The notes under the pieces: generated by a model
What the model was told of the DNA's origin: nothing
What the model saw: the letters and a program-made list of their open reading frames with translations, nothing else
Database searches by the model: none
In this document: in pieces, positions 13,385 through 30,905 of the stretch
Layout of the letters: every line of letters begins with the position of its first letter
Numbering within the stretch: position 1 is the first letter of the stretch
From: a virus
Virus record (IMG/VR): IMGVR_UViG_3300045988_170760
Span: 1 to 64,000 of that record
DNA: 64,000 nucleotides
Direction: 5' to 3' (one strand)
Program-made: the position numbers and the translations under genes

Positions 13385-14278
13385 TTATAAACCAACTTTA
13401 TAATTTCTAAATACATTGCGAGATTTATTTTGTAGTTCTTTTAAATATATTTGTGTTGTAGCAGGATTACTATGACCTAATACATCTTGAATTTCTTCTA
13501 TTTGAAATCCATGTTTATACATATCTGTAGCTGCTGTCCTTCTTAGACTATGTGCAGAAATTGGTTTTGTTATGCCTGCTTTATTCTTTATTTTTTTTAT
13601 AGTAGTATCAATACTTTGAGCAGACATCTTTTTACCTGTATTAGATACAAACAAATAATTTAATTTAGTAGAAGTCCTAGTTTTTAAATACTGTTTTATA
13701 CATTTTGTCACAAAAGAATTAAAATATATTTCTTGCATTTTTCCACCTTTTCTAGTAACAATAATAGTAGAAACTTCTTCATTATTTTCATCTTTAAATA
13801 CAGTAAAAGTATCTAAAGTTAAATTTATTAATTCAGAAATTCTTATACCTGTATTTAAAAATATTGAACAAAAGGCTTTTTCTCTAGGTGTTTTGCATTC
13901 CCTTAAAAAATCTATAATTTCATCTTCTGTTAAATATGTTGTGTGTTGTGGATTTACTATTTTTTTTGTTGTTTTAAATAAATCACTACTAGCAATAATA
14001 TTTTTGTTAAAATCTAATTCAGATTTTGATAACAAAAATGTATAAAAACTACTAACAGCACTAAGTTTTGGTCTTATTGAATTTTCAGATATTCCAGTGT
14101 CTAATAGATAATTCTTCCATTCATAATAGTCATCAATATTTAATTCTTTGAAATCATCTAGTGTTGTAATTGATTTAAATTCAAATAATTCTTTAAGATT
14201 ATCTTTATATCTTTTTCTTGTACCATCACTTCTTTTTGTATTAATAAAGTTGTTTAAAATTTCATCTATATTACTCAT
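13385..14278 (-). CDS. Tyrosine recombinase/integrase (XerC/D-like)
   Basis: ORF track 13385-14311; start taken at MSNIDEI. Catalytic motifs AHSLRRTAAT and LGHSNPATTQIYL (R..HxxR..Y). Confidence 0.85.
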   Translation of the reverse strand: MSNIDEILNNFINTKRSDGTRKRYKDNLKELFEFKSITTLDDFKELNIDDYYEWKNYLLDTGISENSIRPKLSAVSSFYTFLLSKSELDFNKNIIASSDLFKTTKKIVNPQHTTYLTEDEIIDFLRECKTPREKAFCSIFLNTGIRISELINLTLDTFTVFKDENNEEVSTIIVTRKGGKMQEIYFNSFVTKCIKQYLKTRTSTKLNYLFVSNTGKKMSAQSIDTTIKKIKNKAGITKPISAHSLRRTAATDMYKHGFQIEEIQDVLGHSNPATTQIYLKELQNKSRNVFRNYKVGL

Positions 14279-14301
14279 ATCTCTTCCCTCTTTCTGTATA
14301 T

Positions 14302-14330
14302 AGTATAGCATAGATGGAGATAAAAGTCAA
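14302..14330 (-). promoter_or_regulatory. sigma-A type promoter (TTGACT-N17-TGcTATACT), leftward, drives recombinase
   Basis: Reverse complement: TTGACT (14330-14325), 17-nt spacer, TATACT (14307-14302). Confidence 0.55.
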
Positions 14331-17302: not shown

Positions 17303-18028
17303 TTATTCAACTCCTAACAATTTATCTATATAATCTCTATCTTGAGTGAATATAGGGATGTCTAAATCTATATCCCATTTCCCATCTTTTTTGATTACAC
17401 AACTGCCCCTTTTAAAATCTGTTCTATATTTGTCAAAATTAATATTATTTTCTTTCCATAATATTTCCTGTATTTCATTACAGTTTTTATTTTGTAATTG
17501 AGAGTGTGAAAAATATGCCTGACCTGCTGACTGAATTGCGTTACGTGTCGCATCCTGTTGCCTCCAAATAAAATAATTACAGACTTCTTCCTTTGGGATA
17601 TTAAATGCTCTACTGTCAAATGTAGCTTTCCATCTTTTATTATTAAATTTATAACTAAATCCGTTATATTGTAATTTATCTTCTAAAATATTATTAAATT
17701 TTAGTGTAGTTAAACTTGCTGTAATAGATATAATTTTAGATAAATTATTTTGGAACCATGCTTGTGTATCATTATTATCCCAGTCAGTTAATAATAAAGA
17801 TATCTCATCCGATTGAGTATATCCTAATTTACATCCAGGGATTTCTTTACATAACTCTAACGTAGTATTTTGCATCAATCTCATAAAATCTCCGTCATAT
17901 GGTTTTTCTAGTCCTTTTGTAAAAGTATGAAAAGCTCTTCCATCTATTCTTACAATGACAGGGGTTCTACATGTTAAATAATTACGTGTAACAAATTCAT
18001 ATCTTTTCATTCTGTCTCCTAATTTCAT
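17303..18028 (-). CDS. Thg1-like protein (tRNA-His guanylyltransferase family, 3'-5' nucleotidyl addition / tRNA 5'-end repair)
   Basis: ORF track 17303-18061; start taken at MKLGDRMKRYE after AAGGAGG. Family signature: DRMKRYE...PVIVRIDGRAFHTFTKGLEKPYD...GYTQSDEISLLL. Confidence 0.8.
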   Translation of the reverse strand: MKLGDRMKRYEFVTRNYLTCRTPVIVRIDGRAFHTFTKGLEKPYDGDFMRLMQNTTLELCKEIPGCKLGYTQSDEISLLLTDWDNNDTQAWFQNNLSKIISITASLTTLKFNNILEDKLQYNGFSYKFNNKRWKATFDSRAFNIPKEEVCNYFIWRQQDATRNAIQSAGQAYFSHSQLQNKNCNEIQEILWKENNINFDKYRTDFKRGSCVIKKDGKWDIDLDIPIFTQDRDYIDKLLGVE

Positions 18029-18029
18029 T

Positions 18030-18308
18030 TTATTTACCTCCTTTATTTCTAAAATGTACACTATTAAAAGGTATATCTGGAAATTCTTTTAAATATATAG
18101 TAGTATGCCATCCACCTACATCTATACGTTCTATAGTATATTCATGATTTAATTTTAAATATTTAGTAGCTATTTTCCTTTCATATGTCATTCCGTTATC
18201 TGGAAAAGCAAATATTACTTTTGAACCTATTGCAGTATAAATGTCCATTGTATCATCATTTTTAAAAAATTTATCTATATTTTCAAAATCTTCTTTACTT
18301 AATATCAT
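18030..18308 (-). CDS. hypothetical protein
   Basis: ORF track; abuts the Thg1-like gene. Confidence 0.45.
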   Translation of the reverse strand: MILSKEDFENIDKFFKNDDTMDIYTAIGSKVIFAFPDNGMTYERKIATKYLKLNHEYTIERIDVGGWHTTIYLKEFPDIPFNSVHFRNKGGK

Positions 18309-18744
18309 TTATTCTCTCCTTTCTTTTTTTATTAACAATATCATTTAAAGTATTTTCTGTATAATATTTAGTGTGATATGTTCTAATCTTCATTTTTTTG
18401 TTTTTAGAATTTAAAATCCCATCAACAGTTTTATCATTATTGAAAGTAAAATCCGAACCTAATCTATTTAAAAACTGTACTGTATCTTCTGCTTTCCTTC
18501 TGTCTTTTCTTACTTTGCTTAATTCTTTTACTAATCTATATGCTCCAACTGCACTCAACTCTTTAAATTCAATATAATGGAGAATATCTTGTTCCTTTTT
18601 ATTGTTATCCCCAAAATCAACAGAATATTTTTTTAATACATTTTTATATTCTTTTTCTACTGATTTTAAATGTTCTAAAAAATCTAATACATCTTCCTCT
18701 AATTTTAATTTTTTATCTTCATCATATTCTTTTTCATTAATCAA
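18295..18744 (-). CDS. hypothetical protein (basic, coiled-coil)
   Basis: ORF track; TTG start behind a TAGGAGG SD. Confidence 0.45.
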   Translation of the reverse strand: MINEKEYDEDKKLKLEEDVLDFLEHLKSVEKEYKNVLKKYSVDFGDNNKKEQDILHYIEFKELSAVGAYRLVKELSKVRKDRRKAEDTVQFLNRLGSDFTFNNDKTVDGILNSKNKKMKIRTYHTKYYTENTLNDIVNKKRKERINDIK

Positions 18745-18760
18745 TTTTATACCTCCTATA

Positions 18761-18849
18761 TTTTCAACTTATGGGGTGGGTTTTCAAATCAAAAGTGGTT
18801 TTTGAAAATCTACTTTTACATTTTAAAATGCTACTTTTAAAATTGCTAA
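18761..18849 (-). repeat. 89-bp conserved intergenic element, copy R1 (second copy at 26627-26715)
   Basis: Ungapped alignment with 26627-26715 gives 74/89 identities by my count. Shared blocks are TTTTCAACT, GGGGTGGGTTTTC, AAAAGTG and GCTACTTTTAAAAT.GCTAA. Confidence 0.75.
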
Positions 18850-18871
18850 TTATATTACTATTATTAAATAT

Positions 18872-19345
18872 TTATTTATTATAATTTTTAACAATCCAAT
18901 TATGATAGTCATCATTTACTTCCTTATCTTTCTCTAATATCATATTAATCTGTTTGGTATTGTGTTTTCCTAAATAATGTTTTCGACAATATTTACATAA
19001 ATATTCATCTACAAAAAAATATAGATTTTCCAAAAAACCAATATATCTGTTTTCTTTATCCCTATATTTTCTGCCATCATATGTTGCTTTTAATAATTTA
19101 TATTTGAAGATTTTTTTATTATTGTCTTTAATTAGAATATAAAAATCAAAAACTTCAATAGGCAATACTTCTATATAATTAGACAATTTAACATTTTTAT
19201 CACTTGTTTTTTTTAAATTTCTTTTATAAAATAAATTTAAAATTTCTATATTAAATACTTTTTTATAATAAAATGCAATTCGATTTGAAGCTAACTCAAA
19301 ATTTATATCTTTTTCCTCTAATATCTTAAAATCCATTCCATTCAA
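18872..19345 (-). CDS. hypothetical protein
   Basis: ORF track; first gene after the promoter at 19383-19411. Confidence 0.45.
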   Translation of the reverse strand: MNGMDFKILEEKDINFELASNRIAFYYKKVFNIEILNLFYKRNLKKTSDKNVKLSNYIEVLPIEVFDFYILIKDNNKKIFKYKLLKATYDGRKYRDKENRYIGFLENLYFFVDEYLCKYCRKHYLGKHNTKQINMILEKDKEVNDDYHNWIVKNYNK

Positions 19346-19382
19346 TCCTTTCTTTATTAACTTTCTTTTATTTATTTATCTC

Positions 19383-19411
19383 ATTTTAACATATAAAATT
19401 TATTTTGTCAA
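19383..19411 (-). promoter_or_regulatory. sigma-A type promoter (TTGACA-N17-TGtTAAAAT), leftward; near-identical twin of 27279-27307
   Basis: Reverse complement is TTGACAAAATAAATTTTATATGTTAAAAT. It shares TTGACAAAATAAA-N6-ATGTTAAAAT with the 27.3 kb promoter. Confidence 0.7.
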
Positions 19412-19443
19412 CAGTTTTTTTAAAAAAATAAACAATATTTTCT

Positions 19444-19471
19444 CTGGGGGATTTTTTAAAAAAATGTTACG
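19444..19471. repeat. Bipartite motif CTGGGG-n-ATTTTT-N9-TGTTACG, copy 1 of 4
   Basis: Sequence is ctgggggattttttaaaaaaatgttacg, with 21 nt from CTGGG to TGTTACG. Confidence 0.6.
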
Positions 19472-19510
19472 TTATAATTAACCTAGTGATTTTTAAATAT
19501 GATGTTATAG

Positions 19511-19538
19511 CTGGGGAATTTTTATATTTAATGTTACG
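19511..19538. repeat. Bipartite motif, copy 2 of 4
   Basis: Sequence is ctggggaatttttatatttaatgttacg, with the same 21-nt register. Confidence 0.6.
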
Positions 19539-19942
19539 CCTTTTTTGTTTTATTCTTGTTTTTATGCCTATATTTTTCTTGAAACATTTGTTTCGCAAAC
19601 ATTTATTCTTCTAGGTGCATATAAACACAATATTCATATTATTATTTATAATATGCTTAGGACGTATGATATTAGCCATATATTAATTTTTATATATTAT
19701 TAGTATAACTATATTACTTATAAGTAACTTTCTTTAAAATTGATTTTAAAACGTTATTATAAGTATTATAATTATTGTTGTATGACGTTTATTTTAAGTT
19801 TTAAGAGAATATTTTTGCAAGGTATATAAGTATATTACTTTATCTAAAAAACGTCTTAAAATTAATCCTCATGCGTCCTGTGTGTATTAAATTGTCAAAG
19901 TTCTATTAATATGTTAGATTTAATTTATGTATCTAATATGTA

Positions 19943-19985
19943 TATAAAAAAGAGCTATAATATACCTATCTAAGTATATTATAGC
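19943..19985 (-). terminator. Rho-independent terminator (leftward)
   Basis: Perfect 12-bp inverted repeat GCTATAATATAC/GTATATTATAGC (19954-19965 and 19974-19985). On the minus strand it is followed by CUCUUUUUU. Confidence 0.7.
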
Positions 19986-20026
19986 CCACTTGCTATTTTC
20001 TAGTTTTAAGTTCTAGCAAACTTTAT

Positions 20027-20185
20027 TTAATTTTCTTTATTACTTATTCTTTTTATTACAGTAGAATAAAAAGAATATCCATTTTTATTTTTTTTTATAC
20101 AAACATCTTTTCCTTTTCCTAATTCAGCAATTATTTTATTACTATTAGCAATAAATAAATCTATTAACTTATTTTTATTTTCCAT
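20027..20185 (-). CDS. small hypothetical protein (52 aa)
   Basis: My translation starts MENKNKLIDLFIANSNKIIAELGKGKDV and ends RISNKEN. AAGGAGGA SD upstream. Confidence 0.45.
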   Translation of the reverse strand: MENKNKLIDLFIANSNKIIAELGKGKDVCIKKNKNGYSFYSTVIKRISNKEN

Positions 20186-20232
20186 GCAATTCCTCCTTTA
20201 AAATTATTTAAAACAATATGTAAAAGAGAAAA

Positions 20233-20448
20233 TTAATTCTCTTTATTATTTTTTATTTTTAGATATTTATATTTTGATTTATACTTAAAATGTTGTTCTA
20301 AGATATACTTTACTTTTTTATTGTTCGTTTTATTTACTCTATTACATATTGTTTGTCTACTTACACCAAAATGTTTAGCTGTTTCTCGTACATTTGCATT
20401 ATTTTTTAATATATAATCTATTATTACATTATTGTCAATATCTTTCAT
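20233..20448 (-). CDS. SpoIIID-like HTH transcriptional regulator
   Basis: The layout IIDYILKNNANVRETAKHFGVSRQTICNRVNK...ILEQHFKYKSKYK parallels SpoIIID: an HTH followed by a basic tail. Confidence 0.5.
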   Translation of the reverse strand: MKDIDNNVIIDYILKNNANVRETAKHFGVSRQTICNRVNKTNNKKVKYILEQHFKYKSKYKYLKIKNNKEN

Positions 20449-20461
20449 TTTTACCCTCCTG

Positions 20462-20680
20462 CTATAAACTAATACAAACTACCTCTCCACTTGATAACTC
20501 ATAATAAAATTCATCATCCAATAAATCTTCTCCAAATTGTTTTAAATCTATATAATGCATTATAGTATCTGGAATATTATATACATCAGAAATTTCTTGA
20601 TAAGCCAATTCCTCAACATCTCTATATATAGCACAAATTTCAGCAAATTCACTATAACTATAATCTTCTATAATATCCAA
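20462..20680 (-). CDS. ArdA-like anti-restriction protein fragment (C-terminal domain); reading frame continues upstream to a frameshifted ATG at 20777
   Basis: The acidic C-terminus NIPDTIMHYIDLKQFGEDLLDDEFYYELSSGEVVCISL parallels the ArdA tail (..NYIDYQAYGRDL...G.FEI). The same frame is open upstream (DLTEEQIDFLEENNEYDINLEELL). Confidence 0.45.
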   Translation of the reverse strand: MDIIEDYSYSEFAEICAIYRDVEELAYQEISDVYNIPDTIMHYIDLKQFGEDLLDDEFYYELSSGEVVCISL

Positions 20681-20811
20681 TAATTCCTCTAAGTTAATAT
20701 CATATTCGTTATTTTCCTCTAAAAAATCTATTTGTTCTTCTGTTAAATCTTATTATTATCTTCATTCAAATAATACATAATTTATTACCTCCTATTTATT
20801 TTATCACACTT

Positions 20812-20840
20812 ATTTTATCATATTTATTTTATATTGTCAA
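20812..20840 (-). promoter_or_regulatory. sigma-A type promoter (TTGACA-N17-TGaTAAAAT), leftward
   Basis: Reverse complement: TTGACA (20840-20835), 17-nt spacer, TAAAAT (20817-20812). Confidence 0.65.
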
Positions 20841-20844
20841 GCAC

Positions 20845-21195
20845 CTATACCAAATTTAAACTTATTTTTAATGCCTTATTTATACCTTCTAAATCTTTTG
20901 AACATATCTTACCAATTTTATGTAATATCTGAGATTTATCTAATGTTCTAAGTTGTTCTAATAAAACAACAGAATTTAATTCTAAACCATTTTCATCATC
21001 TACTGTTAAAGAAATATGAATTGGTAAATCTATTCTTTTTATTTTAGAAGTTAAAGGGGCAACAATAACTGTTTGACTATATTTATTACCTTTATCATTT
21101 GAAATTATCAAAACTGGTCTTATACCACTTTGAACACTTGTACTATTATTATCCCCAAGATTAGCATAATATAATTCGCCCCTATATATATCCAT
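20845..21195 (-). CDS. mazF: MazF/PemK/EndoA-family toxin (sequence-specific endoribonuclease)
   Basis: Similar along its full length to B. subtilis EndoA as I recall it: RGELYYANL, GIRPVLIISND.GNKYS.TVIVAPLTS, LPIHI, NSVVLLEQLRTLDK and INKALKISLNL. Confidence 0.85.
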   Translation of the reverse strand: MDIYRGELYYANLGDNNSTSVQSGIRPVLIISNDKGNKYSQTVIVAPLTSKIKRIDLPIHISLTVDDENGLELNSVVLLEQLRTLDKSQILHKIGKICSKDLEGINKALKISLNLV

Positions 21196-21218
21196 TTTTC
21201 CTCCTTTATTATGATATT

Positions 21219-21247
21219 ATTATAACATACAAATTCTATTTTGTCAA
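21219..21247 (-). promoter_or_regulatory. sigma-A type promoter (TTGACA-N17-TGtTATAAT), leftward, immediately upstream of mazF-like gene
   Basis: Reverse complement: TTGACA (21247-21242), 17-nt spacer, TATAAT (21224-21219). Confidence 0.7.
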
Positions 21248-21286
21248 GAATTTTTATTATTTTTTTTGAACTATTTTATATAATAT

Positions 21287-21433
21287 TTATATATCTTCAT
21301 ATTTCTTTATTTTTTTATTAATTATTTCCAATTTATCTTCCCATTTCATAAATGGGTCTATTGTAAATATTTCTATTGTCTTTTTATCTTTTCTTATTTC
21401 CCAATTATTACCAACTTTTACTGCATTTATCAT
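21287..21433 (-). CDS. small hypothetical protein (48 aa); weak candidate antitoxin by position only
   Basis: My translation is MINAVKVGNNWEIRKDKKTIEIFTIDPFMKWEDKLEIINKKIKKYEDI. The ATG overlaps the upstream stop (TAATG). Confidence 0.35.
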   Translation of the reverse strand: MINAVKVGNNWEIRKDKKTIEIFTIDPFMKWEDKLEIINKKIKKYEDI

Positions 21434-22074
21434 TATTCCACCTCTATATATTTATATGTCTGTTGTATAGTTTCTGTTTCTTCTTTTATCTTAGCATTAT
21501 CTAATATATATATTAATTCTTCTCTTAATACATCACAAAGTAAATCAAAAGATTTTAGTAAATAGTAACATTCTTCTAAATTGTTATTAATATCTTCATT
21601 ATCTTTACCATAAGCTGTATCTAAACTTTCTTTTTTTAACTCTTTTAATGTATCATAATCATAAATATTATCATCAAAAAATAAATCTAATATATTCATT
21701 CTTTTTTTGTATTGGTTGAAATCAGGAATTATTACTAAATGACCTCCTTGACTTCCGTTGAAAAATATATCTGTACCAGTCAATTCTTCAAAATCATTTA
21801 TAGTAACGTTTAAAAAATCATAAATATAATCATTATCTATATCCAATAACTCAAAAAATGTATTTTCTTGTTTTTTAGATAAATTTAAGTGCCATATTTT
21901 TACATTATTAGCAATACTGCGTAAACCATTCCAAGAATTCATTACATCATATGTATAATGACTTTTGATATATTCAAATTTTTCCTCTAATGTTTTTTCT
22001 TTCATTCCAGTATAAAATACTTTTTCTACCTTTCTATTATCCTTAATAAATTCTTTAATTAATTCTAATTTCAT
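21433..22074 (-). CDS. hypothetical protein
   Basis: ORF track; AAGGAGGA SD upstream; first gene after the promoter at 22104-22132. Confidence 0.45.
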   Translation of the reverse strand: MKLELIKEFIKDNRKVEKVFYTGMKEKTLEEKFEYIKSHYTYDVMNSWNGLRSIANNVKIWHLNLSKKQENTFFELLDIDNDYIYDFLNVTINDFEELTGTDIFFNGSQGGHLVIIPDFNQYKKRMNILDLFFDDNIYDYDTLKELKKESLDTAYGKDNEDINNNLEECYYLLKSFDLLCDVLREELIYILDNAKIKEETETIQQTYKYIEVE

Positions 22075-22103
22075 ATCAATTTCCTCCTTATCTTTATAAT
22101 ATG

Positions 22104-22132
22104 ATTATAGCATATTATTTTAATCTTGTCAA
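22104..22132 (-). promoter_or_regulatory. sigma-A type promoter (TTGACA-N17-TGcTATAAT), leftward
   Basis: Reverse complement is CTTGACAAGATTAAAATAATATGCTATAAT. Confidence 0.75.
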
Positions 22133-22175
22133 GTTTTTTTGTAAAAAATATGTAAAATTTATTTAAAAATGAGGT

Positions 22176-22208
22176 GGGCAATATTTTTATTAATATTATA
22201 TATTGCCC
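22176..22208 (-). terminator. Hairpin terminator (possibly bidirectional)
   Basis: GGGCAATAT / ATATTGCCC 9-bp stem with a 15-nt loop. U-rich tracts follow on both strands. It lies after the small ORF 22247-22417. Confidence 0.45.
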
Positions 22209-22246
22209 TTTTGTTCTTTCAAAAGAACTTAAAAAGTAAGATTATT

Positions 22247-22417
22247 TTATTTTTCATTTAAACCCATAGTTTGTGCATAGTTTTGAATTTCTAATATTAT
22301 TTGATTTTCTATTGCTGTATTTTTCTTTATGTTCTCTACAATATTAGCAACATCTTCTTCTTGTAAGTCTATTTCTAGCTTTTTACTATATTCTACTACT
22401 AAGTCTGCTAAGCTCAT
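22247..22417 (-). CDS. small hypothetical protein (56 aa)
   Basis: My translation starts MSLADLVVEYSKKLEIDLQEEDVANIVENI and ends MGLNEK. GGAGGTG SD upstream. Confidence 0.45.
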   Translation of the reverse strand: MSLADLVVEYSKKLEIDLQEEDVANIVENIKKNTAIENQIILEIQNYAQTMGLNEK

Positions 22418-22528
22418 TATATATCACCTCCTTATCCCCAATAACTTCCTTCTACAAATGATATATAAAAATTCTTATTAATTTCTTTTTCTATAAAGTT
22501 TTCAAAACTCATAATATTAAATCTCCTT

Positions 22529-23251
22529 TTACTCAAAATAATAATTTAAAAAATCTGTCACTATTTCTTCTAAGTTATATTCTATATAACTCACATAATC
22601 TCCCCCATTATTGATAAACTTATCATATAAATATTTAATAAATAAACTATAAACTTCTATTCCATCATCACAACTCTTTATCATATTATCTAATTTCTTT
22701 ATATATTGATTATCGTTAAATTTCCCTATTATATAAGAAAATTCTATTAAATAATAAAGGTCGTCGAATGTAAAATTTTTAAAATTCAAGTCCTTTTTCG
22801 ATTTATTTTCATTTAATTTGATATTTTTATCATTTTTATTATCTTTTAATTTAATAATTATATAATTTTCAGTTTCTTTAATACTTAATATTTCATAACT
22901 GTTTTTATTGTCATTTAAAATATCAAAAATATCATTTGCAAATTTTAATTCACACCCACATAAATTATCCATAGGAGAATTATATAAACTGTCAGCCCAA
23001 CATTCTTTGTAATCTAAACATTCTCTTTCTAATTCATCTATGAACCCATAATTTGTTATGCCTACAAAATTAGTTTCTTTATCTTCTAATTTGTTTAGAA
23101 CTTCACTGTACCATATGCTATCTTCAATATAATGTCCTTGTACCATAGGTATTAAAAATTCCATTGTATTATTCTTATTTATTTTTAACATTATTTTCTT
23201 TTCTTCTTTGCAATTTTTACAAACCTTATATAAATCATCTAAAATATACAT
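22529..23251 (-). CDS. hypothetical protein
   Basis: ORF track 22529-23266; probable start is MYILDD after GGAGGT. Confidence 0.45.
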   Translation of the reverse strand: MYILDDLYKVCKNCKEEKKIMLKINKNNTMEFLIPMVQGHYIEDSIWYSEVLNKLEDKETNFVGITNYGFIDELERECLDYKECWADSLYNSPMDNLCGCELKFANDIFDILNDNKNSYEILSIKETENYIIIKLKDNKNDKNIKLNENKSKKDLNFKNFTFDDLYYLIEFSYIIGKFNDNQYIKKLDNMIKSCDDGIEVYSLFIKYLYDKFINNGGDYVSYIEYNLEEIVTDFLNYYFE

Positions 23252-23274
23252 TTTATTTACCTCCAATAATATAA

Positions 23275-23445
23275 TTATAAATCTATTTCATCTAAAAAGT
23301 CTTTTAATTCTTCTAACTCTTCCTCCAAACCTTCAATGTAATATAAATCGCTTTTCCCATAACCACAACATTTTAATTTTCTTTTCTCATAAGCAATTTC
23401 TTTTTTTAATTCCTCAATTCTTTTTTCTATTTTTTTAGTTTCCAT
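23275..23445 (-). CDS. small coiled-coil protein with CGYG motif (56 aa); paralog of 25577-25747
   Basis: My translation is METKKIEKRIEELKKEIAYEKRKLKCCGYGKSDLYYIEGLEEELEELKDFLDEIDL. GAGGTG SD upstream. Confidence 0.5.
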   Translation of the reverse strand: METKKIEKRIEELKKEIAYEKRKLKCCGYGKSDLYYIEGLEEELEELKDFLDEIDL

Positions 23446-23457
23446 AAAAACACCTCA

Positions 23458-23994
23458 CTAACTCAATCTTTCTTCTAAATTATCAATATTTACAATTTTA
23501 AAATCATCAAATAGTCCACCTAAACAAATATTGTTATTTACTTTGTCATCTATTGTAATTTTAAATTTCAAACAAATATCTTTTCCCAAATTTACAATAT
23601 ATTTATAACAATTTTTATTTGATTTATCAAAATGTAAAATTACATCAACTATTGCAAATTTTTTCAAATCATTTATAAGTGTTTTTTCTACAAATTTAAT
23701 ATGTTCATCTGTAAATTTTAAAGTAGAAAACATAGTTTTTCTATAATTCCATATTTTTTCTACTTGAATTCTACAATATTCATTATCAAACTTTCCTTTG
23801 CTTTTTCCTTCATTTTTTAGTAAATCTAATACATTTTGTGGAATAGCCCAAGCATTTGCATTTTGAGTTAATTTCTCCCATATAGTATCATAAATTATTT
23901 TACAAGCATTTTCAAGTTCTTCTTTATTTTCAGTTTCCGTATCCCAAAAATCACTAACTAAATCTAATAATTTTTTTAAATCTTGATTATTCAT
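23458..23994 (-). CDS. hypothetical protein
   Basis: ORF track; first gene after the promoter at 24031-24059. Confidence 0.45.
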   Translation of the reverse strand: MNNQDLKKLLDLVSDFWDTETENKEELENACKIIYDTIWEKLTQNANAWAIPQNVLDLLKNEGKSKGKFDNEYCRIQVEKIWNYRKTMFSTLKFTDEHIKFVEKTLINDLKKFAIVDVILHFDKSNKNCYKYIVNLGKDICLKFKITIDDKVNNNICLGGLFDDFKIVNIDNLEERLS

Positions 23995-24030
23995 TTTAAC
24001 CCCTCACTTTTTCTCTTCTAAACTATATAT

Positions 24031-24059
24031 ATTATATCACAAAATTTTTATCTTGTCAA
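24031..24059 (-). promoter_or_regulatory. sigma-A type promoter (TTGACA-N17-TGaTATAAT), leftward
   Basis: Reverse complement is ATTGACAAGATAAAAATTTTGTGATATAAT. Confidence 0.75.
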
Positions 24060-24076
24060 TATTTTTAATAAAAATT

Positions 24077-24502
24077 TTAAAAATTTTTAAATTCAGCTTT
24101 TTCAAATTGCCCTACATATTGCCTTGTTAGTTTCCAGTTATTGATAAATCTTAATGAACAACTTTCTGCCCAAATTCTAGGCAAATCTTCTATTTTCATT
24201 ATCATATATTCGGTTTCAATAGCTTGTTTTTTATCTTCCTCATCTTCAATTAAATAGATTTTATGGCAACCATCATAAGCAAATTCATTAATATTTGAAA
24301 TATCATAATTATTTATTTCTCTATCTTGAATGAATTTTATATTATTCAATAATGTATAAAGTTTGTCAAATTTCATTAATTCTATATTATATATTTTCTC
24401 TAAGCTATTAGATACACCATTTTTCCAACTATTTAATCTATTTATATCAAAATCTTCTTCTAATATTTTTCTTATCTCTCTCATATTTACTTTTATTTCC
24501 AT
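24077..24502 (-). CDS. hypothetical protein
   Basis: ORF track. Confidence 0.45.
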   Translation of the reverse strand: MEIKVNMREIRKILEEDFDINRLNSWKNGVSNSLEKIYNIELMKFDKLYTLLNNIKFIQDREINNYDISNINEFAYDGCHKIYLIEDEEDKKQAIETEYMIMKIEDLPRIWAESCSLRFINNWKLTRQYVGQFEKAEFKNF

Positions 24503-24504
24503 AT

Positions 24505-24876
24505 CTATTTCCCTCCAAATTCTTTATCTAGTTTCATAATTAACTCTTTATTTTCCATATATAATAATAGTTTGTTGAAAGGATTATCTCCTTGCCACCT
24601 ACTACTTTCACAATATAATTTATTACTATCTTTTAATATATATATTACAAGGTCATATCCTACACCAAAATAATCATTAATTATTTGTATGTCTTTACAT
24701 AATAAATAATTTTCTCTAATTGCTTTTTTATTCTTATCAAAATACATTCGTTTAAATTCTCTGCCATTCCAATATTCTATATATGCACTACCTTGTCTTT
24801 GTTTTATTTCTTTTCTGTTATTCTCACTAAAAATATAAGTATATTCATTTGTATCGGTTACTTCATATATTTTCAT
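24505..24876 (-). CDS. hypothetical protein
   Basis: ORF track; GGAGGT SD upstream. Confidence 0.45.
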   Translation of the reverse strand: MKIYEVTDTNEYTYIFSENNRKEIKQRQGSAYIEYWNGREFKRMYFDKNKKAIRENYLLCKDIQIINDYFGVGYDLVIYILKDSNKLYCESSRWQGDNPFNKLLLYMENKELIMKLDKEFGGK

Positions 24877-24903
24877 TTTTTACCTCCTTCTTAATTTAAT
24901 ATT

Positions 24904-24932
24904 ATTATACTACTTTTCTTATATCTTGTCAA
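24904..24932 (-). promoter_or_regulatory. sigma-A type promoter (TTGACA-N17-TATAAT), leftward
   Basis: Reverse complement is CTTGACAAGATATAAGAAAAGTAGTATAAT. Confidence 0.75.
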
Positions 24933-24949
24933 GTTTTTTGTAAAATATT

Positions 24950-25186
24950 TTATTTTTTTATTTCTTCTAATTCTATATTTATTTTATATTCTTTTATTAT
25001 GCCTTTATTTTCAATACTTAATATCATGACATCTGTATTAAATTCACTCCATTTATATTTAATGCTGTCATCATTTGCAATGAAATCGTTTGCAATTAAT
25101 TCATTTTCTAAATATTTCATATCTCCTAATAAATCTGCTTCAAACAAACTTAAAATATAATCTTTTATATATCTTTTAATATCCAT
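24950..25186 (-). CDS. hypothetical protein
   Basis: ORF track. Confidence 0.4.
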   Translation of the reverse strand: MDIKRYIKDYILSLFEADLLGDMKYLENELIANDFIANDDSIKYKWSEFNTDVMILSIENKGIIKEYKINIELEEIKK

Positions 25187-25188
25187 TT

Positions 25189-25584
25189 TTATTTTATCTC
25201 CTTTAAAATATTTTCTACTTCTTGTATAGCTCTATGTTCTTCTATATCATATTTATTTATAAAATATGTTGCCATAATTTTTTTTAGTTCTTCTTCATTT
25301 TTTAATTCATAATCCCAGTCGCCTAATTCACAAGGTTGAAATATATATTCATTACTTTGTCTATCTATAATAAACCATGTTGTATCTCTAAATTCATATA
25401 CATTTTTATATTCTGTTTCTGTATATGCAAAACAATTATTTTTGTCATTTATGATAAAAAATGCTATTATTATTCCAATTATAAATGCTATGACTACACT
25501 AACAATTATTCCAATAATAAATTCTTTATTTGTTTCTTTTTCTACAAATTCTTCAAAATCCATACTAACACCTTCTTTATTCAT
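25189..25584 (-). CDS. membrane-anchored hypothetical protein
   Basis: ORF track; a single TM helix (IIGIIVSVVIAFIIGIIIAFFII). Confidence 0.45.
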   Translation of the reverse strand: MNKEGVSMDFEEFVEKETNKEFIIGIIVSVVIAFIIGIIIAFFIINDKNNCFAYTETEYKNVYEFRDTTWFIIDRQSNEYIFQPCELGDWDYELKNEEELKKIMATYFINKYDIEEHRAIQEVENILKEIK

Positions 25585-25747
25585 ATATTTTATTCAATAA
25601 TTCTTCTAATTCTGTTTCTAGCTCTTCTAAATAAACTAAGTCTGTACTTCCATATCCACATACTTTTTGTTTTTCTTCTTCATATCTTATTAATTGTTCT
25701 AATTCGTATATTCTGTTTTCTATTTCTTCAATATCTTCCTCACTCAT
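25577..25747 (-). CDS. small coiled-coil protein with CGYG motif (56 aa); paralog of 23275-23445
   Basis: My translation is MSEEDIEEIENRIYELEQLIRYEEEKQKVCGYGSTDLVYLEELETELEELLNKIYE. AGGAGGG SD upstream. Confidence 0.5.
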   Translation of the reverse strand: MSEEDIEEIENRIYELEQLIRYEEEKQKVCGYGSTDLVYLEELETELEELLNKIYE

Positions 25748-25787
25748 TTTTTTTATCCCTCCTTTTATATTATCCTTTATATATTCT

Positions 25788-26036
25788 TTAATTCATTTTT
25801 TTTATAAAATCTAATATAGCATTTAATAGTTTTACATCTGCACAAAAAGGTTCGTCGTGTTCTTTCCCACCTTGTTTTATTATTCTTTTTAAAAAAACTC
25901 TTTTAGAATTTTTATTGAATATAACTATTTTTTTATCTTCTTCCATTCCTAAAAATCTACCATCATATTTTTCTACTTTTATATATATAATTTTATTATT
26001 TGTTGTTGTTTTTATTTTAAATCCTAATTCTTCCAT
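25788..26036 (-). CDS. hypothetical protein
   Basis: ORF track; GGGAGGA SD upstream. Confidence 0.4.
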   Translation of the reverse strand: MEELGFKIKTTTNNKIIYIKVEKYDGRFLGMEEDKKIVIFNKNSKRVFLKRIIKQGGKEHDEPFCADVKLLNAILDFIKKMN

Positions 26037-26064
26037 TATAATTCCTCCCTAATTAAAATATCCA

Positions 26065-26232
26065 TTAACATAAATAACTATTATCATAATTACTATCAAT
26101 ATATTCTTTTGCATTGTTTAAACTATATGCTGTATTTATATATTTTTGATTTTTATATATATTATATTCATATTCCGTTCTGCAATCATAATCTGCTTTT
26201 GTTTTAACTATTTCATGATTATGGTATTTCAT
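26065..26232 (-). CDS. small hypothetical protein (55 aa, Tyr/Asn-rich)
   Basis: My translation starts MKYHNHEIVKTKADYDCRTEYEYNIYKNQKY and ends NSYLC. GGGGGA SD upstream. First ORF after the promoter at 26259-26287. Confidence 0.4.
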   Translation of the reverse strand: MKYHNHEIVKTKADYDCRTEYEYNIYKNQKYINTAYSLNNAKEYIDSNYDNSYLC

Positions 26233-26258
26233 ATTATTAATCCCCCTTGATATATATT

Positions 26259-26287
26259 ATTTTACCATAAAATTTATATCTTGTCAA
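26259..26287 (-). promoter_or_regulatory. sigma-A type promoter (TTGACA-N17-TGgTAAAAT), leftward
   Basis: Reverse complement is CTTGACAAGATATAAATTTTATGGTAAAAT. Confidence 0.7.
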
Positions 26288-26350
26288 GTTTTTATATAAA
26301 AATATTATAATTTTTATAAATTTAAGATTTAAAATATTACTTTTATTATA

Positions 26351-26602
26351 TTATTCCCAACTTAAATAATTAAAATAGTAACAACCCATTGGATTATAAG
26401 ATACTTTGATTATTGTATTGTCAAATTCTTCTCCTAATTGGGATAATAAATCTCCTATTATTTCTATGTGATTTATTTTTTCTTCAATATCTATCTTTTC
26501 ATCTGTTAGAATTTTAGATAGTTCATATGAAAAACATTCTTTTATGTCTTTTACTTTTCCTATTACATCTTCATCATTATATATAACATTAAAATTCTTC
26601 AT
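26351..26602 (-). CDS. hypothetical protein
   Basis: ORF track; TAGGAGGA SD upstream. Confidence 0.45.
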   Translation of the reverse strand: MKNFNVIYNDEDVIGKVKDIKECFSYELSKILTDEKIDIEEKINHIEIIGDLLSQLGEEFDNTIIKVSYNPMGCYYFNYLSWE

Positions 26603-26626
26603 AATTTCCTCCTATATACCCCTTAG

Positions 26627-26715
26627 TTTTCAACTAAAGGGGTGGGTTTTCGACCAAAAAGTGAATTTCAAAAAACTAATTTTACTTTTGAAATTGCTAC
26701 TTTTAAAATCGCTAA
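26627..26715 (-). repeat. 89-bp conserved intergenic element, copy R2 (first copy at 18761-18849)
   Basis: See R1. It has the same length and the same position: between the first and second gene of an operon. Confidence 0.75.
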
Positions 26716-26728
26716 ATTTTTATAAATT

Positions 26729-27247
26729 TTATCTTGCTAAAAATCCAAAACTATTTCTTAATTCTATCAGTTCTTTCAATTTATTATTATATATTTCTAA
26801 ATTATTATAAGCATTTTCAAATTCAGGGTCGTGAATATTTTGTAAATAATCTATTTCTTCTTTTTTATACCAACTATTTATTTCTAAAATTTCATCATAA
26901 TATCCACCTTTTATATTATTTTCAAATCCTCTTAAAATATCAATATTACCAACATTACCATAATAATTTTCAAATTTTATTATCAAAGTTCTATCATAAT
27001 ATTTTTCACTTATTCCACTATATTTTTTGTCCATATTTTGATAATACACATATTCATATTTTATGTTATTTTTATCTAAATATTCTTTTGCAAATTTTTC
27101 AATATTTTTTGTTACTTTTTTGTGTCCTAATTTTTCCAAATCTAAAAGAAAATTATTTATACATTTCTTTAATTCTATTTCTTTTTTATATTGTCTTTTT
27201 TGACTTTCTAATTTTTCTTTTTCTAAAAAACAAAATTCATATTTCAT
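26729..27247 (-). CDS. hypothetical protein
   Basis: ORF track; AAGGAGA SD upstream; first gene after the promoter at 27279-27307. Confidence 0.45.
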   Translation of the reverse strand: MKYEFCFLEKEKLESQKRQYKKEIELKKCINNFLLDLEKLGHKKVTKNIEKFAKEYLDKNNIKYEYVYYQNMDKKYSGISEKYYDRTLIIKFENYYGNVGNIDILRGFENNIKGGYYDEILEINSWYKKEEIDYLQNIHDPEFENAYNNLEIYNNKLKELIELRNSFGFLAR

Positions 27248-27278
27248 TTTTTTATATCTCCTTTTCTTAATTTTCTTT

Positions 27279-27307
27279 ATTTTAACATACTTTTTTTATT
27301 TTGTCAA
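27279..27307 (-). promoter_or_regulatory. sigma-A type promoter (TTGACA-N17-TGtTAAAAT), leftward; twin of 19383-19411
   Basis: Reverse complement is TTGACAAAATAAAAAAAGTATGTTAAAAT. Confidence 0.7.
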
Positions 27308-27352
27308 TATATTTTTAAAATTTATTTTATTTTTTTTATAAAATATAAAAAG

Positions 27353-27380
27353 CTGGGCGAATTTTTAAATCCATGTTACG
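27353..27380. repeat. Bipartite motif, copy 3 of 4
   Basis: Sequence is ctgggcgaatttttaaatccatgttacg, in the 21-nt register. Confidence 0.6.
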
Positions 27381-27402
27381 TTTTTGAACTACCCTCCCAA
27401 GG

Positions 27403-27431
27403 CTGGGGCAATTTTTTAGTTCCCTGTTACG
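27403..27431. repeat. Bipartite motif, copy 4 of 4
   Basis: Sequence is ctggggcaattttttagttccctgttacg, in a 22-nt register. Confidence 0.6.
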
Positions 27432-27933
27432 TATTTTTTCATCTTTCTGCAAATATTTGTTCTTTAAAACATCTGTTCTATCAAACGAACGTTTTACAAA
27501 CATTCTTTTGCAAACAAACATTTTACAAACATAAGTTTTATAAATATTATATACATACATATATATAATATTAGTGTGTCGCACGTCTGAGGATGCTTTT
27601 TAATCGTTTTTATTAATATACTAATATAGTTATATATATAACAATTATATTACGTTATATCTTAATTTAATGCGTTTTATAATATAAATTATAAAAGTAT
27701 ACAATGAAATTATATATTTAATTGTACCTAAAATGTGATATAACTATACTTTTTAAGTATGCTATATAATTATACAGATAAAAAAATATATTTGATTATA
27801 GCTCATTTTGACACGTTTTAATATGTTCGTATTTTTAGCATATAATTTATAAATATATCAATATAAAATTATGAATGTACTTTTTATTTTCTTATATAAG
27901 GATTTTATTTTCTAAAAATCCTTGTATAAAACA

Positions 27934-27985
27934 ATAAAAAAAACAAGTTATTTATAATTATTAAATAATTATAATATAACTTGTT
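27934..27985 (-). terminator. Rho-independent terminator (leftward)
   Basis: About 21-bp near-perfect hairpin AACAAGTTATTTATAATTATT / AATAATTATAA(T)ATAACTTGTT. On the minus strand it is followed by UUUUUUUU. Confidence 0.65.
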
Positions 27986-28017
27986 ACTTGCAATTTTAAA
28001 ATTGCTTTCATCTGTTA

Positions 28018-28329
28018 TCATTGCATATTTACATCATATTCAATTTTTTTAGTATCAATTAATTTTTGGATATATTTTCTTTTGTTTTTTTTCACATAAA
28101 GACATATAAACAATTCACAAATATCCTTTCTTAAATAGTGCCTATAATCCTCAATAAACATATATAAATGCTTCATAGTAGTATTTGAATAATCCCAATC
28201 AATGCCCAGTGTTAAGGTTCCTTTGTCCTTGTTTATGCTTGCAATCAAGCTATTATAACTCTGAAATTGTATAAGCTCATCACTTTCAAACAAAAATTGA
28301 TTTTTATTATAAAAATTTTGTACTTTCAT
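28018..28329 (-). CDS. hypothetical protein
   Basis: ORF track. Confidence 0.45.
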   Translation of the reverse strand: MKVQNFYNKNQFLFESDELIQFQSYNSLIASINKDKGTLTLGIDWDYSNTTMKHLYMFIEDYRHYLRKDICELFICLYVKKNKRKYIQKLIDTKKIEYDVNMQ

Positions 28330-28360
28330 TTTTTTTATACCTCCATTATTCTATTATTTT

Positions 28361-28594
28361 TTACATTGTTCTTTTTTTCTCTTCTTTTATGATTTTATTA
28401 ATTTTTTTATATAATATATTCTTTTGTCGTTCTGTAATATAACCCCCGTAAATCTTATCATTAAAAAAATACAATTGTATACAATTTATATTATTATTGT
28501 AATAGTACCAAATTATACAATCTTTTTTATTTTTTTCTTTTTCGATTTCGATAATATGATTATCAATTTTTGTATTATATGTAATTTTATTCAT
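28361..28594 (-). CDS. hypothetical protein
   Basis: ORF track; AGGAGGA SD upstream. Confidence 0.4.
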   Translation of the reverse strand: MNKITYNTKIDNHIIEIEKEKNKKDCIIWYYYNNNINCIQLYFFNDKIYGGYITERQKNILYKKINKIIKEEKKRTM

Positions 28595-28626
28595 TTTTTT
28601 TATTCCTCCTTTTATATGTATTTTTT

Positions 28627-28743
28627 TTAATAATTATAAATATTATTAGTATAATATTTTTCGTCATCTTTTTCGTTTTCTATATTGTCAAAAATTCTAT
28701 TATCAATATTTCTTATTATCTCGTTTATTGTATTTTCTTTCAT
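28627..28743 (-). CDS. small hypothetical protein (38 aa)
   Basis: My translation is MKENTINEIIRNIDNRIFDNIENEKDDEKYYTNNIYNY. The SD (AAGGGG) is weak. Confidence 0.25.
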   Translation of the reverse strand: MKENTINEIIRNIDNRIFDNIENEKDDEKYYTNNIYNY

Positions 28744-28924
28744 TTTTCTTTTGCCCCTTTACTGTTTAAAGTCTGCTTGTGCTTAAAATTACAAGCTTTT
28801 TACTGTATCTTACTTTTGCTAAAAATTTATTGAATAGATAAAAACTATCAAATTTTTTTTCGAAATTTTTATTTGTTTTTTTATCTAATAATTTTATTGT
28901 AAACATATAAACACCGCCTTTTTA

Positions 28925-29095
28925 TTATTTTATGTATTTATCAATTAAATTATAACTAATTATTTTATATAGATTTATTTTTCTGTTGCTTAAATTATAT
29001 ACAATACCTTGTATTAATAACCCCAAAATTAAAATCCCCATTAATTCAATAAAAATTATTCCCATTTTTGCCAAAAATTCTAAAAATAAAATCAT
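28925..29095 (-). CDS. small membrane protein (56 aa)
   Basis: My translation is MILFLEFLAKMGIIFIELMGILILGLLIQGIVYNLSNRKINLYKIISYNLIDKYIK. AAGGAG SD upstream. Confidence 0.45.
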   Translation of the reverse strand: MILFLEFLAKMGIIFIELMGILILGLLIQGIVYNLSNRKINLYKIISYNLIDKYIK

Positions 29096-29115
29096 TTTTT
29101 TACAACTCCTTTTAT

Positions 29116-29289
29116 TTATATTATCACTTTTTCAAATAATTGTAAAGATATTTTATGTGTTATTCCTAATGCCAAATTTGTTTCTTTAGATATTAATTTT
29201 ATGGTATCTTTACCAAAATTTTCTATATAAAATATACCATTAAATTTTATACCATTTGTAAATGGTCTTACTTGTTTATAATAATTCAT
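29116..29289 (-). CDS. small hypothetical protein (57 aa)
   Basis: My translation starts MNYYKQVRPFTNGIKFNGIFYIENFGKDTIKL and ends FEKVII. TAGGAGG SD upstream. Confidence 0.45.
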   Translation of the reverse strand: MNYYKQVRPFTNGIKFNGIFYIENFGKDTIKLISKETNLALGITHKISLQLFEKVII

Positions 29290-29336
29290 ATTAAAAATAC
29301 CTCCTATAGTAAGCTTGTTTTTCTTTTATCTTTTTT

Positions 29337-29507
29337 TTATTCTTTTATTTTATAGTTTGTCAAGTTTTCTATTTCTGTTTTTTCAAAATTAGATAGTTTA
29401 TAAAATGTAACTTTTTTATGTTTACTGTCAATATTTTCTATTTTTTTTATTTTTGGTAAACATTCTTTATATTTTCCAAAAATAAAATTGTTTAATATTA
29501 TATACAT
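29337..29507 (-). CDS. small hypothetical protein (56 aa)
   Basis: ORF track 29337-29540. The upstream ATG lies inside or before the predicted TSS. The ATG at 29507 (MYIILNN) follows AAAGGAGA. Confidence 0.45.
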   Translation of the reverse strand: MYIILNNFIFGKYKECLPKIKKIENIDSKHKKVTFYKLSNFEKTEIENLTNYKIKE

Positions 29508-29538
29508 TTTTTTTCTCCTTTCTTTTTTCATTATACAC

Positions 29539-29566
29539 ATTATATCATTATATATTAAAAAGTCAA
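29539..29566 (-). promoter_or_regulatory. sigma-A type promoter (TTGACT-N16-TGaTATAAT), first leftward promoter of the divergent control region
   Basis: Reverse complement: TTGACT (29566-29561), 16-nt spacer, TATAAT (29544-29539). Confidence 0.6.
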
Positions 29567-29576
29567 TGACAAAATC

Positions 29577-29609
29577 ATTACAATTATATTACAATTATAT
29601 TACAAAATT
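29577..29609. repeat. 3 x 11-bp tandem repeat ATTACAATTAT (third copy 9/11)
   Basis: Sequence is attacaattat attacaattat attacaaaatt. It lies just upstream of the -35 of the leftward promoter, with a one-helical-turn period. Confidence 0.6.
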
Positions 29610-29891
29610 CAAATTTTAGTTCGCTATTTTATTTTTATTTTCTTTTATTTTTGTTTTTAGTGGTTTAGTTATGTAAACAATAACATAGCTGTATATGTAT
29701 ATACAAAAGCATTATACATCTAATATATAATAACTTTCTATATTAAAAGTCGCTATTTTTTTATTTTTGCTATTTTTTAGGTGCTATATAATTTGTGTGT
29801 ATAGCTCTTTTGTGTTTTATTTTACTATTCTTACTTTTACTTTTGTTTTTGTTTAATGTTCCACAAAGAACATATTATCTTATATAGATAT

Positions 29892-29911
29892 ATAAACAAA
29901 CGTTCTTTTGT
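29892..29911. repeat. 20-bp direct repeat ATAAACAAACGTTCTTTTGT, copy 1
   Basis: An identical 20-mer recurs at 29999-30018. It contains the imperfect palindrome ACAAACG-TTC-TTTTGT. Confidence 0.65.
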
Positions 29912-29998
29912 TATATTATATTTATTTTTTTTATTTTATTTTTATTTTAATTAATATAAAATAAATTGCGTATATTGTGTTGTCGTGTAATTGTGTGA

Positions 29999-30018
29999 AT
30001 AAACAAACGTTCTTTTGT
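29999..30018. repeat. 20-bp direct repeat ATAAACAAACGTTCTTTTGT, copy 2
   Basis: Identical to 29892-29911, 107 bp apart. A 15-bp palindrome TGATAATCATTATCA follows at 30038-30052. Confidence 0.65.
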
Positions 30019-30117
30019 GTTGGGTGGGATATGTGATATTGATAATCATTATCATATATTTAAAAAATGCAGTTACCCTTTTTTAAAACCCCTTTCATTT
30101 TTAAAATAGATTTTTTT

Positions 30118-30146
30118 TATATATTTTAAATTAAACTAAAAGTCAA
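30118..30146 (-). promoter_or_regulatory. possible additional leftward promoter (TTGACT-N17-TATATA)
   Basis: Reverse complement: TTGACT (30146-30141), 17-nt spacer, TATATA (30123-30118). No ORF lies directly downstream. Confidence 0.35.
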
Positions 30147-30705
30147 ATTTTACTTATAATTTTAAAACAATAACAGCAACCTTAAAATTATTGATAAAAT
30201 TGTGATTTTATAAATATTAATAATCCCGTTACGTTTTAAATTTATGGTAGTAAGGGGGATACAATAACAACCAAGACCCCAAAAAATCGAACAAGTGTTC
30301 CGCGTGCACATCCATTCCCACACCCAACTCCGAAATACCGAAAAAACCTTACTCTCCCAATACATACAAGCACAAAAAATAAAATTATTTATAAAATCGA
30401 AAAAACAGATATAAAAAATCGTAAAAACGGTGAAAATAGTGCATTAAGCGAAACAGTAAAAATAATAATTATAGTAATAAATATAGAATAACGATAAAAA
30501 AATAAGATATTAAAAATCTCTAAAACCTTGATATTTCTAATAATTCATACGAAACTTCTAAAAATACTTCTAAAACACTCTAAAATTTCTAATAATTTCA
30601 AAAAAATAGAAATATAGAAAAATAGATTAAAATGTTAAAATAAATCAATTATATTATAAATATTTATATACATATTATATATACATATTATATAACATAT
30701 TTAGT

Positions 30706-30792
30706 TGTGTAAAAATACAAAGTTCATTGTGTAAAAATACAAAGTTTGAATGTGTAAAAGTACAAAGTTTGGTTGTGTAAAAATACAAAGTT
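30706..30792 (+). repeat. Four tandem iterons TGTGTAAAA(A/G)TACAAAGTT, period 22-23 bp
   Basis: Copies start at 30706, 30728, 30751 and 30774. Three are identical and one has a single A>G change. The array ends 24 bp upstream of the -35 at 30816. Confidence 0.85.
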
Positions 30793-30815
30793 TAGCATAT
30801 AATTTTAAAAAAGTA

Positions 30816-30844: not shown

Positions 30845-30905
30845 TATATAGAAGCAATTAAGAGAGAAACATAAAGTATTAATTAAGGATAAGAAAGGTG
30901 GTGGT

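Follow-up and report, generated by a model that had tools for sequence, protein, structure and literature searches.

The early arm of this phage genome contains a duplicated cassette with the order boxes, strong promoter, first gene and conserved leader, of which a pair of tandem 28-bp boxes is a conserved part. The boxes are rare, lie in a fixed orientation and recur in eight related low-GC phage genomes, which belong to gut phages of about 120 kb. As judged from their sequence pattern, they most likely bind a regulatory protein; that they act as upstream binding sites for a phage-encoded regulator co-controlling the two early cassettes is given a probability of about 0.5. Their rarity, footprint-like conservation, orientation, tight inter-box spacing and association with one promoter type argue together for a protein-recognition element tied to cassette transcription. 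With its tandem 28-bp boxes, a gap of A/T only, a consensus promoter, an exchangeable first gene and a downstream element called R, the cassette defines a conserved cis-regulatory unit in a family of large human-gut phages that are almost unannotated. It offers an entry point to the timing of the early "host-takeover" genes and marks a site of accessory-gene exchange.

Boxes and cassettes in the window

The window is the whole stretch of DNA analysed, covering the first 64 kb of a virus record that is 120,297 bp long and has terminal repeats, and positions below refer to it. The initial annotation had reported four 28-bp copies of a motif, all in a single orientation, and a pattern scan recovered each of them at its place on the plus strand. 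The register, counted between the first bases of CTGGG and TGTTACG, was likewise found to be 21-22 nt. Read along the adjacent leftward promoters, on the minus strand, the boxes are as follows.

19444..19471, minus strand: site A, promoter-proximal box, CGTAACA-TTTTTTTA-AAAAAT-CCCCCAG (plus strand CTGGGGGATTTTTTAAAAAAATGTTACG)
19511..19538, minus strand: site A, distal box, CGTAACA-TTAAATAT-AAAAAT-TCCCCAG, starting 67 bp from the proximal box (plus strand CTGGGGAATTTTTATATTTAATGTTACG)
27353..27380, minus strand: site B, promoter-proximal box, CGTAACA-TGGATTT-AAAAAT-TCGCCCAG (plus strand CTGGGCGAATTTTTAAATCCATGTTACG)
27403..27431, minus strand: site B, distal box, CGTAACA-GGGAACTA-AAAAAT-TGCCCCAG, starting 51 bp from the proximal box (plus strand CTGGGGCAATTTTTTAGTTCCCTGTTACG)

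A relaxed pattern gave exactly these four boxes both in the 64-kb window and in the whole genome, with no match for the reversed-pattern control, and its core was found nowhere else, including before the late genes. In 100 dinucleotide-preserving shuffles the pattern had 0 matches. A related GTTACGTTTT at 30228, to which the initial annotation had also pointed, is present there (as CCGTTACGTTTT) but only as a 10-mer; the two other conserved blocks are missing at the right distance, and it was rejected as a fifth box.

Both sites share one layout. In the minus-strand sense, the terminator of the upstream operon is followed by an ORF-free spacer, the distal box, the proximal box, a gap, the promoter, the first gene, R and the second gene.

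19952..19987, minus strand: intrinsic terminator that ends the upstream operon ahead of the site A spacer
19539..19951, unstranded: ORF-free AT-rich spacer of site A beyond the distal box, 20% GC, with the palindrome GAAACATTTGTTTC at 19581-19594
27432..27942, unstranded: ORF-free AT-rich spacer of site B beyond the distal box, 18% GC, with a LexA-like AAAACATCTGTTCT at 27461-27474
27308..27352, unstranded: A/T-only gap of site B from the -35 to the proximal box (site A equivalent, 19412-19443)
19383..19411, minus strand: site A promoter, TTGACA-17-(TG)TAAAAT, 11/12
27279..27307, minus strand: site B promoter, TTGACA-17-(TG)TAAAAT, 11/12
18872..19336, minus strand: first gene of cassette A, 154 aa from ATG, with a CxYC motif and no family match, conserved at site A in seven genomes
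26729..27247, minus strand: first gene of cassette B, 172 aa, no family match
18748..18849, minus strand: R of cassette A, two copies of AAAAGTAG plus GAAAACCCACCCC, immediately 5' of the ribosome-binding site of the second gene
26615..26715, minus strand: R of cassette B, about 81% identical to the copy in cassette A

The two near-identical leftward promoters described earlier are real, each being the best sigma-70-type match in its region. The distance between box and -35, previously given as 33-44 bp, was measured as 32 bp at site A and 45 bp at site B, and the gaps at both sites are almost pure A/T. The 45-bp stretch 27306-27350, which overlaps the site B gap, holds no G or C and is the lowest such window genome-wide, tied with 29911-29955.

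The first genes of the two cassettes were considered as paralogues and rejected as such (BLASTP E 0.035; hhalign probability 0.5%). Across the relatives, the cassette A slot is always occupied by one family of 154-167 aa with the CxYC motif, while the cassette B slot holds at least three apparently unrelated families, the profile comparison having covered the site-A family and the 172-aa site-B family only. The position between promoter and R behaves like a site where accessory genes are exchanged.

R is an element of about 100 nt with two copies of AAAAGTAG about 22 nt apart, followed by GAAAACC(C/T)(A/G)CCCC. There are exactly two copies in this genome, and blastn found two in the relative G002 and two in the 26-kb stretch of the relative G001 that was examined. 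From its sequence and position, R could be a nut/put-like element or a translational control element.

The spacers are 400-600 bp long, their GC content is among the lowest 2-5% for 400-bp windows, and neither contains a credible small ORF. A comparison of five divergent spacers gave no robust conserved motif. The site B spacer has three 22-nt repeats, CAAAC..ACAAACAT. LexA-box-like AAC-N4-GTT palindromes, the GAAACATTTGTTTC and AAAACATCTGTTCT listed above, lie 30-45 nt past the distal boxes, and site B of G001 and G002 has CGAAC-N4-GTTT; these hint at a possible SOS input to something in the spacer. Three segments, 19647-19680 (plus strand), 19865-19885 (minus strand) and 27564-27600 (plus strand), share TATAAT and, a few nucleotides on, GGACG(Y)ATGA / GTCTGAGGAT. 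This shared motif suggests that small divergent or convergent transcripts may arise within the AT-rich spacers, with no credible ORF in them.

Conservation and anatomy across relatives

The scan of the full genome and of related phages that had been proposed with the motif gave four copies here and the same element in eight related genomes. Pattern scans of viral collections identified G001 and G002. In G001, site A is near-identical and site B 74% identical to the genome under study, whereas G002 is more distant, with a median protein identity of about 62% and of about 50% in the early arm. Between this genome and G002, no intergenic DNA aligns except the boxes. At site B the comparison with G001 shows the boxes kept, with the 22-24 bp between them and the DNA past the distal box scrambled; homology is detectable up to 27436, five bases past the box.

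A search baited with R, which does not depend on the box pattern, yielded five more phage genomes (G004-G008), and R is also found in G003. In the five baited genomes a TTGACA-17-TAnAAT promoter lies 545-586 nt before R, with two boxes upstream of the promoter and three at one site. A scan of eight genomes showed exactly four boxes in each of the five complete ones, arranged as two pairs 6.6-9.9 kb apart. The incomplete records had four boxes (53% complete), two (59% complete) and five, as a pair and a trio (88% complete). Within each of the eight genomes the boxes are all on one strand, and the reversed-pattern control gave 0-1 matches.

Near-identical copies were also seen on two human-gut metagenome contigs, and a MAG with the label Clostridium sp. 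contains a more distant relative with R, the promoter and, before the contig ends, a single degenerate box. Single-protein searches with the Thg1-like and wHTH proteins returned one near-identical relative only. Megablast of the 19-28 kb region against GenBank phages gave no match, and boxes and R are absent from the 50-kb central part of SPbeta that was searched. A tandem-box scan of a genome collection gave chance matches among those listed, and chance matches only with a stricter pattern; one metagenome match (L185) is a eukaryote-like low-complexity repeat and was rejected as chance.

To describe the anatomy of the element, 29 boxes, all distinct, were aligned in the direction of their adjacent promoters. 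Their consensus reads a-a-w-n GTAACA, N7-9, AAAA(A/T)T, (T/C) n C C C n R S. The search pattern itself contained GTAACA and AAAAWT, but the R-baited loci show both blocks independently. The spacer between the two blocks is 7-9 bp (8 bp in 20 of the 29 boxes) and 67% purine. After AAAAWT, every box has C at position +4, and 27 of 29 also have it at position +3. The motif had been described as bipartite: the GTAACA and AAAAAT blocks are real, but the conserved blocks number three with the C-run. The CTGGGG end is the least conserved part of the box among the relatives, with the variants CCCCAG, CACCCGGC, TCCCCGAGC and CACCGGGC in the promoter direction.

All 29 boxes point the same way as their promoter. 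Neighbouring boxes stand at one of two well-defined intervals, 52.4 +/- 0.9 bp for B-type sites or 66.5 +/- 2.1 bp for A-type sites. A coding explanation is excluded by inter-box distances that do not keep to multiples of 3 (51, 52, 53 and 54 bp) and by the lack of an ORF conserved across the boxes. A reading of CTGGGG plus the T-run as a terminator was rejected, a hairpin being present at some boxes only.

Predicted binding of a phage regulator

The earlier suggestion of a regulator that co-controls two early operons fits all the comparative evidence, and it is strengthened by the footprint-like conservation, the fixed orientation, the two pairs per complete genome and the constant linkage to promoter and R. 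The searches identified no protein as the predicted binder, and the wHTH, SpoIIID-like and recombinase proteins that had been nominated gained no specific support. A host regulator, offered as the other option, seems less likely; the MAG of a candidate host has no evident box enrichment ("Clostridium sp." SUG825, which contains the distant relative and is an uncertain host assignment, gave four loose matches against two in the control, none of them box-like).

In the proposed mechanism, the boxes would act in cis as targets of a sequence-specific DNA-binding protein, most likely a phage product. The asymmetric site would be read as GTAACA, about 8 purine-rich bp, AAAAAT and the C-run, extending over about 2.5 helical turns about a central A-tract. 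Such a long, asymmetric, A-tract-centred site would suit one multi-contact protein unit and not a symmetric dimer. Two protein units would sit 52 bp (B-type) or about 66 bp (A-type) apart, upstream of a consensus sigma-A promoter. Once bound, they may set the output of this promoter and possibly also that of a divergent transcript starting in the AT-rich spacer. Both early cassettes, each with its promoter, first gene, R and downstream genes, would in this way be switched together. Since the promoters are already near consensus, we lean, by analogy with phi29 p4, towards timed shut-off or upstream repression and away from activation. The boxes' existence, rarity, conservation, orientation and place in the cassette are observed, and from these we infer the binding of a protein, the identity of the binder and the sign of regulation.

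Several findings count against binding by such a regulator. Among genomes with the same box, the candidate HTH proteins share only 40-60% identity. The boxes lie at about -60 to -160, clear of the promoter, and the proximal GTAACA is 59-81 bp from the -35 (clusters at 59-63, 71-73 and 77-81 bp), a flexible distance that is not strictly phased. A simple operator would also leave the adjoining 400-600-bp ORF-free AT-rich spacers unexplained. Boxes occur at only two of at least nine strong leftward promoters in the early arm, which indicates that they do not form a master-repressor regulon. Pfam, PHROG and NCBIfam searches with about 50 early ORFs gave almost no DNA-binding candidates, and nearly all of these ORFs had no family match.

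The closest working analogues of the predicted regulator and its boxes are the SroF/MrpR box and phi29 p4. phi29 p4, characterised by Rojo, Salas and colleagues, binds A-tract sites of about 27 bp between A2c/A2b and A3, at about -70 to -82 of strong promoters. Its sites are inverted repeats bound by a dimer; they are present in several copies and switch early transcription from upstream. The likeness to the present boxes (A-tract sites of about 27 bp, several copies, a place upstream of strong promoters) is one of mode of action only, and the boxes differ in being asymmetric. The lambda OL/OR and nutL/nutR arrangement is also alike in having two loci and several operator copies at an early promoter, and R stands in the position of nutR after the first gene. 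However, lambda operators are palindromic and overlap their promoters, and R has no boxA/boxB-like hairpin.

In the SPbeta family, a SroF/MrpR monomer recognises a 26-bp asymmetric box with an A-tract at its centre; copies of the box are scattered over the genome, and one protein reads about 24 of the 26 bp around the A-tract (bioRxiv 10.1101/2025.11.27.690993; PMC10516654). The SPBRE box was recovered from the SPbeta sequence as ACAAATAC-AAA(A/T)AATATGTAT, at or after promoters and with its orientation locked to the genes. The SPBRE/MrpR/YopR/SroF system of SPbeta and phi3T resembles the present one in its non-palindromic, A-tract-centred boxes of 26-28 bp, in their dispersed copies and gene-locked orientation and in the large SPbeta-type genome, and a model of one protein unit per box would fit both. 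In contrast, SPBRE boxes stand singly, at about ten promoters or downstream of them, whereas the boxes here are tandem pairs at two promoters only and are unrelated in sequence.

The SPBRE/MrpR system itself was rejected as an identity for the boxes on the grounds of the unrelated box sequence, the two loci and the MrpR families. PF22822 and PF22823 were below the cut-off in this genome and seven relatives, with a B. subtilis control detected; this lack of the MrpR/SroF Pfam families also weighs against a regulator of that kind. No similarity to SPbeta YopR was found. Sub-threshold matches to the MrpR N-domain occur in two incomplete records, G006 and G007. The match in G006 is to the N-terminal core-binding domain, in a 356-aa ORF (contig C1, 25781-25984; E 3.8e-4, 17 bits), which has no equivalent in the syntenic stretch 2600-5150 of the window. 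If the boxes are indeed read by one unit with a long footprint, the SroF/MrpR mode of operator reading would extend beyond Bacillus phages.

Other readings and neighbouring elements

The main rival to a regulator site is an SPP1-like pair of replication origins, which we consider unlikely. Each box pair and its AT-rich ORF-free spacer would form an origin where a phage initiator binds the repeats and melts the DNA, helped in unwinding by the outward promoter. SPP1 has the same design, with two origins, oriL and oriR, whose direct repeats and AT-rich unwinding region are bound by gp38, and one of them is within a moron-like segment bracketed by transcription signals (PMC6316719). The likeness lies in the two loci per genome, here with the same layout, and in direct repeats next to an ORF-free segment very rich in A/T. 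The proximal box of site B adjoins one of the only two 45-bp windows in the genome that lack G and C. The spacer sequence is not conserved and AT-richness alone persists; an origin would account for these long ORF-free spacers. The same arm also encodes replication proteins, among them a core-gene HTH protein that is a candidate replisome organiser.

5096-6109: primase
6125-7591: DnaB-like helicase, directly downstream of the 211-aa protein
7604-8239, minus strand: 211-aa protein combining an N-terminal sigma-r4-like HTH with a conserved C-terminal YMMAIIKNN domain and an acidic tail, found in 9/9 genomes searched

However, each site has two repeats only, and the GC skew does not flip at site A or B. 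The boxes are coupled to the promoter-gene-R cassette at 14 of 14 sites, which an origin does not need and in which they differ from SPP1. The candidate initiator is encoded 11-19 kb away, and the box is constant while the recognition helix of this protein varies. No gp38-like protein was recognised; the 211-aa protein has no match to replisome-organiser families, and its profile gave generic HTH matches only against the PDB.

A broader proposal, a little less plausible than the paired origins, joins the boxes, twin promoters and R into a duplicated master early switch of a new SPbeta-like family of gut phages of about 120 kb. The boxes would then be read by a new long-footprint single-unit protein, in the manner of SroF and with another fold or family, or would represent a new promoter class for a phage-modified polymerase, and R would act in a nut/put-like way on the transcripts.

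Taken by itself, a promoter function is still less probable. The boxes would be tandem leftward phage-specific promoters for a modified host polymerase or a phage polymerase, with GTAACA as upstream element, melting at AAAAAT and a start in or after the C-run, and would provide a second, later mode of expression. Their span of about two helical turns is promoter-like and all of them point along the genes; GTAACA matches TTGACA at 4/6 positions and AAAAAT matches TATAAT at 4/6, including A-11 and T-7. Against this, GTAACA and AAAAAT are separated by just 7-9 bp, and the occurrence of the relaxed core at four boxes only would imply a factor with four promoters, serving operons that already have consensus promoters. 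Sigma-factor region 2 was not found in the genome. On these three points a general or sigma-factor promoter class was rejected.

It is very unlikely that the boxes are transcribed as an RNA element (a leader or small-RNA module, for instance) from an unmapped promoter in the spacer. Strand asymmetry, the purine-rich sequence (67%), the A-run and C-run and the fixed orientation would agree with this, and the C-run is similar to the GAAAACCCACCCC core of R, which is transcribed. Yet no conserved hairpin or covarying pairing and no conserved upstream promoter were found, and Rfam 15 had no match at E <= 1 in 18000-31000.

Lowest among these readings, and highly improbable, is that the boxes are sites for the resident tyrosine recombinase, with direct repeats 7.9 kb apart allowing early-gene excision, an alternative that the initial annotation had raised and that the comparisons disfavour.

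13385-14311, minus strand: Xer-like tyrosine recombinase, the only integrase-family gene, with intact R..K..HxxR..H..Y

The enzyme is catalytically intact and a core gene in 9/9 genomes searched; its best match among solved structures is XerA (1e-20), and it shares 24% identity with the integrase-like proteins YopP and YomM of SPbeta. In dif, the XerD arm is TTATGTTAAAT. The ATGTTA word of the boxes resembles this arm, and 28 bp is the length of a dif-type core. Unlike a dif-type core, however, the boxes have unrelated arms (CTGGGGnATTT and CGTAACAnnnn) that are not inverted repeats, and GTAACA and AAAAAT do not match the conserved inner-arm positions (ATAA/TTAT) of Xer sites. The central 6-8 bp differ between copies in all 29 boxes, which would block strand exchange. 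The sites are tandem direct pairs 50-70 bp apart, the one-strand arrays are kept in eight genomes, and no array-less or hybrid-array variant was seen among these. A search for a conserved palindromic core site of the recombinase gave coding or terminator-like matches only and no target site. The ParB N-terminal domain (PF02195) was not found in the genome, which weakens a reading as a ParB-type centromere. Packaging sites, also raised earlier, are unlikely because the two loci both lie within the early arm.

Two further elements lie to the right of site B. At 30038-30052, in the central divergent control region, TGATAATCATTATCA forms a perfect 7-1-7 palindrome, which we take to be of the Fur/PerR-box type. 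At 30701-30791, four tandem 23-bp iterons (TTnnTTGTGTAAAAATACAAAGT) stand directly upstream of a rightward promoter (30808-30849), which precedes a ScpB-like winged-helix gene (30906-31505).
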